Assembly: GCA_964442455.1 (NCBI GenBank)
Contig: CAYTZB010000003.1
Coordinates: 19,842 to 83,841 of the forward strand
Length of the DNA: 64,000 nucleotides
Reading direction: 5' to 3'
From: an uncultured Gammaproteobacteria bacterium
Lineage (GTDB): Bacteria > Patescibacteriota > Microgenomatia > UBA8517 > JACQJR01
The notes under the pieces were generated by a model. That model had not been told where the DNA came from and did not search any database. It saw nothing but the letters and a program-made list of their open reading frames with translations. Made by a program: the position numbers and the translations under genes. Of the stretch, positions 41,962 through 47,013 are shown piece after piece (position 1 is the first letter of the stretch; each line of letters starts with the position of its first letter).

Positions 41962-42160
41962 TCCTTGTGCTTTGCACAAGGAAATTCGAAGCACGAATTT
42001 TAAAGCACGAAATTCGAATATCGAAGCACGAAACAAATCATAAATTCAAATTTTCAAATGTTTCAAACATTAGAATTTTGAACATTTAGTATTGTTTCGA
42101 ATTTCGTATTTCTGATTTCGAATTTAATTTTCTTTCGGATTTTCTCGCGCAGAGCGCGAG
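41962..42160 (+). repeat. intervening-sequence-like palindromic element inserted in 16S helix 6 (V1)
   Basis: Lies between GCAAGTAGAACGG and GGATAGTTGCAAACGGGTGAGTAACGCG. Bounded by hairpins CCTTGTGC-TTTG-CACAAGG and CTCGCGC-AGAG-CGCGAG. Core is the CGAAGCACGAA...TTCGAATTTCG element. Confidence 0.6.
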
Positions 42161-43538
42161 GATAGTTGCAAACGGGTGAGTAACGCGTAGGAATCTACCC
42201 TTTGGTGGGGTATAGTCCGCCGAAAGGCGGGGTAATTCCCCATAGTCTTGCAAGAGTAAAGCGCGTAACTGCGCACCAAAGGAGGAGCCTGCGTCCTATC
42301 AGCTAGTTGGTAGGGTAATGGCCTACCAAGGCAGTGACGGGTAGCTGGATTGAGAGATCGGTCAGCCACAAGGGCACTGAGACACGGGCCCTACACCTAC
42401 GGGTGGCAGCAACTGGGAATCGTCGGCAATGGGGGAAACCCTGACCGCGCGACGCCGCGTGAGGGATGACGGCCTTCGGGTTGTAAACCTCTAATATCCG
42501 CCGAAAGGCGAGATAAACTAGCGCCCGCAAACCACGTGCCAGCAGCTGCGGTGATACGTGGGGCGCAAGCGTTATCCGGATTTACTGGGCGTAAAGCGTT
42601 CGTAGGCGTCTCGGTAAGTCGCACTTTAAATACTCGGGCTTAACTCGAGAAATGGGTGCGATACTGTCGGGATTGAGTGTGCGAGGGGGTACTGGAACTG
42701 CCGGTGTAGGGGTGAAATCCGTTGATATCGGCAGGAACACCAAGGGCGAAGGCGAGTACCTGGCGCATAACTGACGTTGAGGGACAAAAGCTAGGGGAGC
42801 GAACCGGATTAGAGACCCGGGTAGTCCTAGCCGTAAACGATGCTCGCTAGCTGCCTCACTCTTTCTGTGCATGAGATTATCTTACTAATTATTTTGTGCT
42901 TAGAAAGTGTGGGGTGGCGTAAGCTAACGCGTTAAGCGAGTCGCCTGGGGAGTACGGCCGCAAGGCTAAAACTCAAAGGAATTGACGGGGACCTGCACAA
43001 CCAGTGGAGCATGTGGTTTAATTCGAGACAAACCGAAGGACCTTACCTGGGTTTGACATGCTACCGTTCACCCCGATGGAAACATCGGGGGATCAGCAAT
43101 GATGGTAGCACAGGTGCTGCATGGCTGTCGTCAGCTCGTGCCGTGAGGTGTCGGCTTCAGTGCCGTAACGAGCGCAACCCCTACCTGCTGTTAGATTATT
43201 CAGCGGGGACGGTCTCCCTTCGGGGAGAAGGAAGGAGGGGATGATGTCAAGTCAGCATGGCCCTTATACCCAGGGCAACACACATGCTACAATGACCGCG
43301 ACAATGGGTTGCCAAGCCGTAAGGTGGAGCTAATCCCATCAAACGTGGTCTCAGTGGGGATTGTGGGCTGCAACTCGCCCACATGAACGCGGAATTGGTA
43401 GTAATCGCGGGTCAGCTATACCGCGGTGAATACGTTATCAGGTCTTGTACACACCGCCCGTCAAGCCAGCAAAGTTGGGGGCACCTGAAGGTCCCTTTTT
43501 GGGAACGAGGGTGAATCCAGCGATGAGGACTAAGTCGT

Positions 43539-44282
43539 AGACGCAAACTGCGTTTGTTGCGACCTTCTGGAGTAATCCAGTTGAAAAATTCAACTGTATC
43601 GGTGAACTCCTACTTGATATTCGCGTCATCTTCGGATACGCTGAATTAAAAAGGAGAATACCGAGGGAAGTCTCCCATTAGATACGAAGTTATCTAACGG
43701 GATGACCCCGTAGAGACTACACGTTGACTCCTCAAGAATGACTAAAGCATATTTGCTTGGCGCTTTACATGACGGTACCGTACGGAGACTAACTTATCGC
43801 ATCGTCCAGAAAGATCAAGAGTACATTGAATTTCTTGTAAAAGGGATTCAGAATCTTGGTCAAAAAGTCTGGATGTATAAAGAAGGGAAGAGCAGACAAC
43901 TTTATGTTGCCGAGTTCTCAAGAAACTTCTTAAAAGATTTTGTTTTGCAAACTTTGCAGGACAAAGTTGATTACATCCGAGGTTATTTCGATGCAGAAGG
44001 TGGAGTCTCGAGAAATCCAAAAGTTCGATACTACATTTATTTCGCTCAGAAAAATCTAAAAGATTTAGAGCAGGTAAAAAGATTTTTAGAAGAACTAGGG
44101 ATAGAATGCGGTATCTTACATAATCCAAGCAAAGGAGTAGACCCCAATTATTGGCGATTTTTCGTTAGAGCTTGTTCTTACGGAAGATTTGCACACTTAA
44201 TTGGAAGTTGGCATCCTGTTAAAAGTCAATTTTTGAGGATGAAGATATAGTCCATGCCACTAGTAATAGTTGGAGTAACATG
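43539..44282 (+). mobile_element. intron in 16S rRNA at E. coli position ~1506 (putative group I), encoding a homing endonuclease
   Basis: Removing 43539-44282 restores the universal AAGTCGT|AACAAGGTA. The 5' exon ends in U and the insertion ends in G. Confidence 0.7.
43738..44250 (+). CDS. LAGLIDADG-family homing endonuclease (intron-encoded)
   Basis: Two LAGLIDADG-like motifs, LLGALHDGTV and IRGYFDAEGGV. 170 aa. Located entirely inside the 16S insertion. Confidence 0.8.
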   Translation: MTKAYLLGALHDGTVRRLTYRIVQKDQEYIEFLVKGIQNLGQKVWMYKEGKSRQLYVAEFSRNFLKDFVLQTLQDKVDYIRGYFDAEGGVSRNPKVRYYIYFAQKNLKDLEQVKRFLEELGIECGILHNPSKGVDPNYWRFFVRACSYGRFAHLIGSWHPVKSQFLRMKI

Positions 44283-44595
44283 AACAAGGTATCCGTACTG
44301 GAAGGTGCGGATGGATCACCTCCTTTCTAGGAGAAATAGGGTTCACGGCCCTATCCGCCAATTGGCGGAGTGATATTCACCCGAGAGTTTACCTTTACTC
44401 TCGTTTCCTCCCAAAGCCCATTTTGGGCATTGTGGCGGACCAGCCTAAATACTTTTGTTTTTGGCTGGAAACAACAAAAGGATTCTTCCGGTCACTTTCT
44501 GAAGGTCAAGGAAAAAATCCCTAGCAAACGCTGGGGATTTTTTGCCTCCGGCCCTTGAGGGCCTCTGGCCCGGAGGGTATAATTAATGTGCCTTT

Positions 44596-44805
44596 GGGCT
44601 GCTGGTTCAGCGGTAGAACGCTTTCCTGATGACAAACAAAGTTTGACATATCAAATTTTGATACATAACATGGGTGCGTGGCTCAGTGGTAGAGCGTCGT
44701 CCTGATAAGACGAAGGTCCTTGGTTCGATCCCAAGCGCACCCACACAGCAAAGTACAAAATTTGTTATAAGAAAGAGGTGCTAGGTTCGACTCCTAGGCA
44801 GCCCA
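44596..44805 (+). tRNA. split tRNA with GAU anticodon (tRNA-Ile-like) carrying a 136-nt insertion in the anticodon loop
   Basis: The 5' half 44596-44632 and 3' half 44770-44805 pair perfectly: acceptor GGGCTGC/GCAGCCC, D-stem GTTC/GAAC, anticodon stem CTTTC/GAAAG, T-arm CTAGG-TTCGACT-CCTAG. The anticodon loop CTGATGA is interrupted at the canonical 37/38 site. Confidence 0.6.
44672..44743 (+). tRNA. tRNA-Ile(GAT), nested inside the insertion of the outer tRNA
   Basis: Manual cloverleaf. Acceptor GGGTGCG/CGCACCC. Anticodon stem TCGTC/GACGA. Loop CTGATAA. T-loop TTCGATC. Confidence 0.85.
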
Positions 44806-45277: not shown

Positions 45278-45350
45278 GGGCCCGTAGTTCAACCGGCAGA
45301 ACACTTCATTTGCAATGAAGAGGTAGGCGGTTCGACACCGCCCGGGTCCA
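45278..45350 (+). tRNA. tRNA-Ala(TGC)
   Basis: G3:U70 identity pair (GGGCCCG/CGGGTCC). Anticodon loop TTTGCAA. T-loop TTCGACA. Confidence 0.85.
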
Positions 45351-46009
45351 CAATCCGCCAGCTGGCGGAGGTTCTTTGACAACCAAGAGAAAATTGTGCA
45401 AGATTTAAACTATTTGCCTTTTGATAACACGAGGCAAGATAGTGGAGTAGAGCCGTGTCAACAGAACGCGCACAGTGGATGCCTTGGCACACGCTACCGA
45501 AGAAGGACGCAGTTGGCCGCGATACTCGTCGGATAGGTGCCAACAACCGATAATCCGGCGATTTCCGAATGGGGAAACCCCTCCGATGGTAACATCGGAG
45601 AGCCCCCGATTTAATCGGGGGTGGGGAACTCGGGGAACTGAAACATCTAAGTACCCGGAGGAAGAGAAATCTAAGAGATTCCGTCAGTAGCGGTGAGCGA
45701 AAGCGGAAGAGCCTAAACCCCCTCGTGGGGTGTTGTGGGACTAACATACGGGATGGAGGAGGATAGCAGAAGAGTCTGGAATGGCTCACCAAAGAAGGTG
45801 AAAGTCCGGTACGCGAAATCCAAATCCACCTAGTTTTGCTCCCAAGTACCATGGAGCAGATACTCTGTGGGAATCTGGGGGGACCACCCTCCAAGGCTAA
45901 ATATAGTGTGTGACCGATAGTGAACAAGTACCGTGAGGGAAAGGTGAAAAGATGGGCGGGACGCCCAGTGAAATAGAACCTGAAACTGTGTGCGAACAAG
46001 CCGGTAGAG

Positions 46010-46203
46010 CTTGTGCATGGCACAAGAAATTCGAAGCACGAATTTTAAAGCACGAAATTCGAATATCGAAGCACGAAACAAATCATAAATTCAAATTTTC
46101 AAATGTTTCAAACATTAGAATTTTGAACATTTAGTATTGTTTCGAATTTCGTATTTCTGATTTCGAATTTAATTTTCTTTCGAGTTTCTCGCGCTGTGCG
46201 CGA
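46010..46203 (+). repeat. intervening-sequence-like palindromic element in 23S helix 25 region (E. coli ~540)
   Basis: Lies between ...GAACAAGCCGGTAGAG and TGATACCGTGCCTATTGAAGAATGAGCCGGCGAGT. Hairpins CTTGTGC-ATGG-CACAAG and CTCGCGC-TGTG-CGCGAG. The core is nearly identical to the 16S copy. Confidence 0.6.
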
Positions 46204-46845
46204 GTGATACCGTGCCTATTGAAGAATGAGCCGGCGAGTCCTCATCGTTTCTGTGTCTAAGTCATTAACTGACGCAGGCATAGAGAAATCGAGTGTGAAT
46301 AGCGCGTTTCTGGTCTATACCAGATTAGAAACGGTGGGGGACCCGAAACCGGGCGATCTATCCATGGGCAGGGTGAACCCCGCAGAAATGCGGGGGAAGG
46401 CCCGAACCCGTCTAGGGGACAATCTGGTGGGATGACCTGTGGATAGCGGTAAAATGCCAATCGAGCCCGGAGATAGCTGGTTCTCCCCGAAAGGTCTATG
46501 GGGACCGCGGAAGTAAAAAGCGTGTCAGGGGTAGAGCACTGAATGGGTGGAGGAGGGTAACCGACTTCACTCAATCAAACTCCGAATACTGGCGCGTATA
46601 AATCCAGACAGACTCACGGGGCTAAGCTCGTGAGTCGAGAGGGAAACAGCCCAGATTCTCGTCTAAGGTCTCGAAGTCTTGGCTCAGTTGGAAAGGATGT
46701 CATATTCCCAAGACACCCAGGAGGTTGGCTTAGAAGCAGCCATCCTTTAAAGAAAGCGTAACAGCTCACTGGAAGAGGCCCGCATGGGCTGGGAGTATGG
46801 CGCCGAAAATGATCGAGGATTAAGCCAAGCACCGAAGACAGAGGG

Positions 46846-47013
46846 CCTTGTCATTTGGACAGGGAAATTCGAAGCACGAATATCGAAGCTCGAAACAATA
46901 TCAAAATTCAAAAATTTAAATTTCAAAATTATTTTGAATTTAGTATTTTAAGAATTGTAATTTGTTTCGGATTTCGGATTTAGAATTTCGGATTTTCTCG
47001 CCCAGAGGGCGAG
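46846..47013 (+). repeat. intervening-sequence-like palindromic element in 23S helix 45 region (E. coli ~1170)
   Basis: Lies just before the conserved TTGGTAGGGGAGCGTTCCGTA. Hairpins CCTTGTC-ATTTG-GACAGG and CTCGCCC-AGAG-GGCGAG flank a GAAATTCGAAGCACGAA ... TTTCGGATTTCGGATTT core. Confidence 0.6.

Follow-up and report, generated by a model that had tools for sequence, protein, structure and literature searches.

A bacterium assigned here to the candidate phyla radiation (CPR) carries, in a single rRNA operon, palindromic insertions of one sequence family in three helices of two different ribosomal RNAs. The operon lies in a stretch of 64,000 nucleotides of contig CAYTZB010000003.1 (the window, whose numbering is used throughout unless another sequence is named), and the insertions occupy helix 6 of 16S rRNA (h6) and helices 25 and 45 of 23S rRNA (h25, h45). 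The ultra-small CPR bacteria account for much of the diversity of bacteria, and insertions abound in their rRNA genes; among these, the short ones devoid of an open reading frame (ORF) have so far only been counted. The copies described below give the short ones an identity as a conserved, modular family that turns over between genomes and is common to 16S rRNA, 23S rRNA, RNase P RNA and intergenic DNA. We consider it fairly likely that they form a mobile, recombining, CPR-wide family of intervening sequences (IVSs), which sit at peripheral helix tips of stable RNAs and are excised by RNase III.

Copies of the element in the window

The initial annotation of the window had proposed insertions of 168-199 nt in 16S h6, 23S h25 and 23S h45, together with two intergenic copies of the same repeat. 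Alignment to Rfam models and mapping on E. coli rRNA placed the three rRNA insertions in the same helices and refined their limits. The copies and their parts are as follows.

41963-42161, + strand: IVS copy in 16S helix 6, replacing the distal part of the helix (E. coli ~69/100)
41963-41981, + strand: hairpin A of the h6 copy
41982-42142, + strand: palindromic core of heptamer units of the h6 copy
42143-42161, + strand: hairpin B of the h6 copy
46010-46204, + strand: IVS copy at the tip of 23S helix 25 (E. coli ~539/553), with hairpin A at 46010-46026 and hairpin B at 46188-46204
46846-47014, + strand: IVS copy at the tip of 23S helix 45 (E. coli ~1159/1183)
46846-46864, + strand: hairpin A of the h45 copy, CCTTGTCA-TTT-GGACAGGG
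46996-47014, + strand: hairpin B of the h45 copy, TCTCGCCC-AGA-GGGCGAGG
24329-24443, + strand: intergenic copy of the core only, lacking A and B, between co-directional genes and just 3' of a small hairpin, CAGCTCC-GTAA-GGAACTG
35258-35392, + strand: intergenic copy of the core only, between a thioredoxin gene (Pfam) and the ribosome-binding site of the next gene

In the Rfam alignment of the 16S gene, 181 nt are inserted into the hairpin formed by model positions 80-85, and that of the 23S gene has an insert at model position 583. The h6 and h25 copies share 96% identity over ~196 nt and 99% over a gap-free stretch of 162 nt, in keeping with the near identity over about 160 nt that had been noticed at the outset, and the h45 copy is about 76% identical with both over ~157 nt. 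At stem position 7 the h45 copy carries a G-to-C change that is compensated in both of its hairpins. Scored against a family profile built from 28 copies, 25 of which come from other genomes, the h6 copy reached 122 bits and the h45 copy 146.8 bits.

The same profile gave 54.3 bits for the intergenic copy at 24329-24443 and 75.7 bits for that at 35258-35392, and the best of 500 dinucleotide-preserving shuffles of each reached 8.2 and 6.5 bits, respectively. Their family resemblance is thus not mere AT-rich low complexity, the objection that the initial annotation had itself raised. The claim of a dispersed repeat that also occurs between genes therefore stands for the core, but what the intergenic copies have in common with the others is only this AT-rich part, and the GC-rich end hairpins are specific to the copies in stable RNAs. 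The thioredoxin gene upstream of the second intergenic copy ends with a hairpin of its own, AAAAAGCAC-TTTA-GTGCTTTTT. An ORF of 99 aa without a Pfam match (24072-24371) enters the 5' arm of the first intergenic copy and stops inside it; the repeat may have changed the C-terminus of this small gene, or the ORF may not be real.

A conserved basal module around an exchangeable core

The anatomy of the element was derived from an alignment of 28 full-length copies. Its basal module consists, on the 5' side, of hairpin A (CCTTGTGC-NNN-GCACAAGG) and the nearly invariant AAATTCGAAGCACGAA and, on the 3' side, of TTTCGGATTTYC and hairpin B (YCTCGCGC-NNN-GCGCGAG(G)). Between these basal sequences lies a variable AT-rich palindrome of 7-nt units, in which CGAAnnn stands opposite nnTTCGn; at lag 7 the core has an autocorrelation of 0.54, whereas the values for lags 2-6 and 8 are 0.20-0.39 and those for lags 1 and 14 are 0.42 and 0.45, respectively. 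This is the layout first proposed for the three insertions, except that the hairpin loops have 3 nt and not 4. Two copies in L008 (5797-5982 and 7491-7687; handles of this kind denote sequences other than the window) have extra small GC-rich hairpins nested in the 3' arm, such as CCGCCGAAGGCGG and TCAGCCTCTGGCTGA.

Each of the copies in the rRNA genes of the window folds as one long imperfect hairpin in which A is paired with B, with minimum free energies of -77.5 kcal/mol for h6 (z -8.9), -81.5 kcal/mol for h25 (z -10.3) and -56.3 kcal/mol for h45 (z -4.9). A and B are inverted repeats of each other, loops included, with systematic T/C and A/G differences, and their loop triplets are complementary at 82 of 90 positions, compared with 56 +/- 4.5 in permutations. 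Over the alignment, 92.5% of the pairs in the A:B basal stem of 29 pairs are formed and 43 cells carry changes on both sides, a result equalled by none of 500 shuffles, and the stem was recovered independently by RNAalifold. The basal duplex is rich in G.U pairs and contains two conserved A.C mismatches. A search for inverted repeats with Watson-Crick pairs only largely overlooks the structure, which depends on G.U pairs.

The local hairpins A and B are kept by covariation as well (97.1% paired, 28 double changes), and the long stem is favoured over them by 7-10 kcal/mol. The two hairpins that had been described as closing an AT-rich core are thus supported as local structures, but A and B also pair with each other to form a single long stem, and covariation in the alignment suggests that both conformations appear to be under constraint. 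The pair of the host helix that flanks the element is retained in 22 of 26 copies and covaries (RNAalifold). Of 79 distinct full-length copies, 75 are more stable as sense than as antisense RNA; the mean difference is 14 kcal/mol, and the sense fold has 8.8 G.U pairs where the antisense fold has 3.7.

Spread of the family over the CPR and over its host RNAs

The 22-nt A-junction motif ACARGRAAATTCGAAGCACGAA served as search handle. It was found at 28 loci of a one-genome-per-species collection and at 86 metagenome loci, with full-length copies identified by nhmmer in loci of both kinds; none was found in viral contigs. More than 100 independent assemblies contain the exact 22-mer, and an estimated ~0.3 matches would be expected by chance in the genome collection. 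The metagenome-assembled genomes (MAGs) with the motif are labelled Levy-, Davies-, Woese-, Gottesman-, Chisholm- and Kaiserbacteria, Parcubacteria and Saccharibacteria, and the family spans Microgenomates, Parcubacteria and Saccharibacteria. Where short contigs with the element bear labels such as 'Gammaproteobacteria' or 'Thermodesulfobacteriota', we did not regard these as a sign of hosts beyond the CPR, and we rejected a MAG labelled Balneolales (L019), which has a match of 27 nt only, probably by chance, and no palindrome.

At least 12 helix tips of 16S and 23S rRNA are occupied by the family. The 16S sites are h6, ~181/195 and a stretch close to the 3' end, which lies ~50 nt upstream of E. 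coli ~1499, and those in 23S rRNA are ~130/189, ~271/290, h25, h45, ~1590, H63, ~1854, ~2128, H98 and ~2852. Rfam alignment also located the element at two sites of RNase P RNA, and in L005 it replaces the distal P15-P17 arm. The flanks of 82 of 84 full-length metagenome copies were assigned to rRNA or RNase P RNA, with the element in sense orientation; no antisense copy was found among the 84, and the genome loci were likewise sense only. No Rfam family for the element was found, and the elements themselves had no Rfam match.

Hairpin A also heads insertions whose cores are built of other units (TTTCAAA, AATTTCT, AAAGTTA, CTCAAAA, ACACGAA), which indicates that the A/B module is the common feature of the stable-RNA copies and that the core is exchangeable. 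As in the window, copies consisting of the core only often lie between co-directional genes of other CPR contigs. Some copies immediately precede the 5' end of 23S or 16S rRNA, in the part of the leader or spacer that normally forms the rRNA processing stem (L030 3087-3191, L015 786-935, L096/L059).

Turnover between close relatives

The initial annotation had suggested a mobile element that targets rRNA hairpin loops, and relatives with empty sites were found for h6 and h25. At h25, L107 and L053/L044 are 100% identical over flanks of 300 nt, and L107 has an element of 157 nt where L053/L044 have a native tip of 17 nt, GGTCGCCTTTGGCGACT; the element stands in place of this tip, without any duplication. 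L035, with flanks 94-97% identical, has another core with the same type of ends at this site. A relative of the window organism, L037, which has a 16S leader in common with it and flanks 92-96% identical, is empty at h6 and has an element at 16S ~181/195, whereas in the window h6 is filled and ~181/195 is empty. In H63, L043 has a full element and L031 a stub without core, CCTTGTGC-GGCGCAAGTC-GCGCGAGG, which represents the outer halves of A and B and looks like a deletion footprint, or possibly a precursor. The stub lies at ~240-265 on the - strand of L031 and is also present in L067 and L109.

Cores do not follow their sites. Between genomes, core identity is 0.615 for the same site and 0.609 for different sites, compared with 0.727 within a genome. 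In two pairs of copies, the h6/h25 pair of the window and the h6/h45 pair of MAG Yes71-31, the cores are 99-100% identical but the end hairpins differ, a pattern that suggests gene conversion, or an exchange of cassettes, with the conserved basal sequences as its boundaries. Mobility thus finds support in presence and absence among relatives, in the shift of site in L037, in the stub and in the identical cores, but active targeting of loops does not; the one clean polymorphism is a replacement of the tip without target-site duplication. In these examples presence and absence do not simply follow deep phylogeny. Two contigs (L010 1-310, L022 2997-3361) are inverted exactly at an element, so that 23S sequence is read from both strands to its left and right; the palindrome probably made the assembler fold back, which calls for caution with CPR rRNA assemblies.

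Proposed mode of action and alternative explanations

In the explanation that we favour, A pairs with B in the transcript to form a duplex of ~30 bp that continues the host helix, and the core lengthens this duplex to a hairpin of ~80-95 bp with regularly spaced internal loops. The basal A:B duplex would be the putative processing site, RNase III being the most likely enzyme, and a cut in this duplex would take out the IVS, so that 16S and 23S rRNA would persist as fragments that are held together; in other genomes RNase P RNA might likewise be left as fragments. At the DNA level copies are gained, lost (leaving stubs) and exchanged, and the conserved basal sequences probably provide a portable homology through which copies undergo gene conversion and perhaps also pass from lineage to lineage. 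Excision, RNase III as its enzyme and the mode of movement are what we infer. That RNase III may be responsible is suggested by the position of two copies at h25 and h45, the classical sites of RNase III-excised IVSs, by a basal duplex of ~30 bp that is nearly continuous while the core is interrupted every few pairs, and by a canonical RNase III gene (243 aa, with the signature NERLEFLGD) on one element-bearing contig, L060/L062. It also agrees with a review according to which metatranscriptomics supported the removal ('self-splicing') of CPR 16S insertions, mainly those >500 bp (PMC9698310). In the 64-kb window itself RNase III was not found among 24 ORFs scanned with Pfam, nor by a search for the signature.

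Several observations weigh against this explanation. Conservation of the basal ~30 nt across phyla is far above the known needs of RNase III, and an RNase III duplex alone does not account for the upkeep of the local hairpins A and B; indeed, B retains C-G pairs that cause the A.C mismatches of the long stem, in 19 of 28 copies at one and in 26 of 28 at the other. Excision from RNase P RNA would yield a split ribozyme, which is unusual. As regards movement, target-site duplication is absent (identical 3-nt flanks in 0 of 26 copies), and no transposase was found among the 24 window ORFs scanned with Pfam. The strong conservation of the module, with both alternative pairings kept, suggests an additional sequence-specific partner that acts at the RNA or the DNA level. 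It is tempting to go further and to see in the A/B module the signal by which a dedicated CPR system recognises or recombines its substrates; such a system would move interchangeable palindromic cassettes between helix tips of stable RNAs without target duplication, while processing at the module would split 16S, 23S and even RNase P RNA across much of the CPR; we regard this proposal as rather doubtful, though not far-fetched.

The elements could instead be retained expansion segments, that is, protruding helices kept in the mature ribosome and in RNase P and never excised. Every site is a peripheral helix tip tolerant of extra RNA, and the element extends its host helix coaxially, with the first flanking pair kept and covarying as mentioned above. 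Retention would also avoid the splitting of RNase P RNA, and the CPR RNase P RNAs drawn by Lui et al. show 'large extensions of helices' (PMC8172020). This account is nevertheless unlikely in our view: h25 and h45 are classical sites of excision, a nearly continuous basal duplex of 30 bp is a typical RNase III substrate, the metatranscriptomic support for removal of CPR 16S insertions (mainly those >500 bp) points the other way, and rapid presence and absence together with swapping of cores speak against a structural role in the ribosome. The element might alternatively be mobile primarily as DNA, like a miniature transposon or a hairpin-ended element, moved by a trans-acting transposase or recombinase that recognises A and B, and with an RNA hairpin that merely renders insertions in stable RNAs harmless. 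In favour of this, A and B are mutually inverted repeats and each is a 7-3-7 palindrome, like the site of a dimeric protein or a single-strand hairpin signal; they are strongly conserved across phyla, and the copies are dispersed, intergenic ones included, and polymorphic for presence and absence. But native tips are replaced rather than interrupted, with no target-site duplication, and the intergenic copies are without A and B. In addition, the full-length copies all have sense orientation and the G.U asymmetry lets only the sense strand fold well, both of which argue for selection on RNA. With no transposase in the window ORFs scanned and no copies in viral contigs, movement of this kind seems quite improbable.

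Finally, the insertions might be ordinary, vertically inherited helix extensions, alike only because of AT-rich low complexity or through assembly artefacts. The core is indeed AT-rich and built of short tandem units, and two contigs do show a fold-back at the palindrome. However, true copies score 54-147 bits and their shuffles no more than 8 bits, the ends covary, the similarity of cores is independent of site, near-identical strains have empty sites, and the exact 22-mer is present in independent assemblies far in excess of the matches expected by chance. This explanation is scarcely credible, and chance, low complexity and assembly artefact as such are excluded by the shuffle scores, the site-independent cores and the pair of strains with filled and empty sites.

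Other repeats of the window and its host

A further trace of the family and many other short-unit repeats were noted in the window.

13518-13554, + strand: 37-nt fragment of the 5' arm of the element (AAATTCGAAGCACGAAGCACGAAATTCGAAAC), in frame in a gene for ATP-dependent DNA ligase (Pfam); 28 bits, E = 3.4e-8
7551-7588: short-unit hairpin or array
9583-9657: short-unit hairpin or array
21221-21258: short-unit hairpin or array
25994-26026: short-unit hairpin or array
27518-27550: short-unit hairpin or array
57581-57675: short-unit hairpin or array
59640-59790: short-unit hairpin or array
60185-60290: short-unit hairpin or array
61155-61225: short-unit hairpin or array
61785-61855: short-unit hairpin or array
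62018-62090: short-unit hairpin or array

The fragment in the ligase gene encodes ANSKHEARNSKL in the N-terminal domain and is preceded by a small hairpin (CCGCCttGGCGG); it may be the relic of an insertion into a coding region. The remaining hairpins and tandem arrays consist of units of 7-8 nt, of the types CCATTTGA, CCCGTAATT, TTTCAAT and AAAGTTA, and part of them lie within long ORFs. The AAAGTTA type is also the unit type of the core of the L107 h25 insertion. The genome of the window thus seems to hold diverse short-unit palindromes.

A single rRNA operon, consisting of 16S (from 41893), two tRNAs, 23S (45451-49107) and 5S, was identified with Rfam on the + strand of the window. On the evidence of its sequence, the organism is a member of the CPR (Patescibacteria), since its rRNA is divergent, its 16S gene contains a LAGLIDADG ORF and its 23S gene a weakly group-I-like insertion, the nearest rRNAs among the sequences fetched are those of CPR MAGs, and the window proteins occur only in short metagenome-run assemblies. 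Exact matches to these proteins were found only in short Logan contigs (1.2-3.7 kb), which break at the rRNA operon, and the identity of the window rRNA with that of the named MAGs fetched is only ~78-81%. The true 3' end of 16S rRNA (GGATCACCTCCTTTCT) is at ~44328, whereas Rfam forced its end to 43595. Near this end an insertion of ~690 nt (43590-44330) encodes a LAGLIDADG_3 homing endonuclease (ORF 43738-44250) and is a typical CPR 16S insertion of the intron type. The 23S gene contains an ORF-less insertion of 351 nt after E. coli 2500 (48370-48720), with a sub-threshold match to Intron_gpI (32 bits, E = 1.3e-6).

Implications for CPR RNAs and their annotation

Recognition of the family provides a search handle, either the 22-nt junction motif or a covariance model, with which further copies can be collected. 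It predicts fragmented rRNA, possibly a split RNase P RNA, and a conserved partner in processing or recombination. The element also accounts for the breaks and fold-backs of CPR rRNA operons in assemblies, and for the failure of primers and models for 16S V1 and of models for RNase P RNA; it is advisable to mask it ahead of rRNA phylogeny.

Comparison with known systems

No published description of the family was found in the full-text literature, a search with the literal sequence included, although a prior mention in the work of Brown et al. (2015) is possible. Brown et al. reportedly noted short, ORF-less insertions in CPR rRNA genes and left them uncharacterised. Tsurumaki et al. 2024 report from CPR rRNA genes many short (<200 bp), ORF-less insertions that are not introns, guess that those at the sites 23IS2 and 23IS4 are RNase III IVSs, and note that the insertions of Saccharibacteria are nearly all short (PMC11270868). 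The element falls in the class used there, as it exceeds the E. coli sequence by at least 100 bp, has no ORF and fits no intron model. For RNase P RNA, Lui et al. 2021 describe the CPR molecules as having 'large extensions of helices' (PMC8172020). The family almost certainly comprises the same objects as these short uncharacterised insertions and extended RNase P RNA helices, with which it agrees in a length of <250 bp, in the lack of an ORF and of an intron model, in the sites 23IS2 and 23IS4, in its frequency in Saccharibacteria and in the extended P15 arm. The available portions of both papers give positions and lengths, and describe no shared family, A/B hairpins, covariation, link to intergenic copies or polymorphism between strains.

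As small, non-coding, dispersed and hairpin-forming repeats that are often found in transcripts, the Correia elements of Neisseria, the ERIC/IRU elements of enterobacteria, REP/BIME and STRR resemble the family. The STRR heptamer repeats of cyanobacteria are, moreover, built of 7-nt units. In the element we saw neither a TA target duplication nor a GTAG/CGTC head, nor any similarity in sequence; it is not a REP/BIME, as it lacks the GTAG/CGTC head and its size is outside that of a 20-40 bp palindrome. None of these repeats, to our knowledge, colonises the helices of rRNA and RNase P RNA systematically and in one orientation. Correia hairpins are substrates of RNase III (PMC2649163). Models of group I and group II introns gave no Rfam match on the elements, the only weak Intron_gpI match being that of the 23S insertion at 48370-48720 mentioned above. 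Eukaryotic expansion segments use the same permissive sites, h6, H25, H45, H63 and H98 corresponding to ES3S, ES7L, ES15L, ES27L and ES39L, but they are retained and stable within lineages and, unlike the family described here, are not a repeated mobile sequence.

The closest likeness is to the classical 23S IVSs of Salmonella, Yersinia, Campylobacter, Leptospira and Coxiella, to those in helix 9 of alpha-proteobacteria and to the rare 16S IVSs, with which the family has in common the sites h25, h45 and the helix-9 region. As in these, a long stem takes the place of a helix tip, it occurs sporadically among close relatives, and there is neither a re-ligation signal nor an intron fold. Classical IVSs are, however, specific to a site and a genus, and some of them have an ORF, whereas here a single sequence family with a conserved basal module is found at at least 12 sites of 16S and 23S rRNA and in RNase P RNA, across phyla and with intergenic relatives that consist of the core only, and its excision, in contrast to theirs, is put forward as probable. 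Among the intervening sequences of rRNA the family is thus unusual in its pan-phylum conservation, its many sites, its three host RNAs, its modular cassettes and its turnover at the level of strains.

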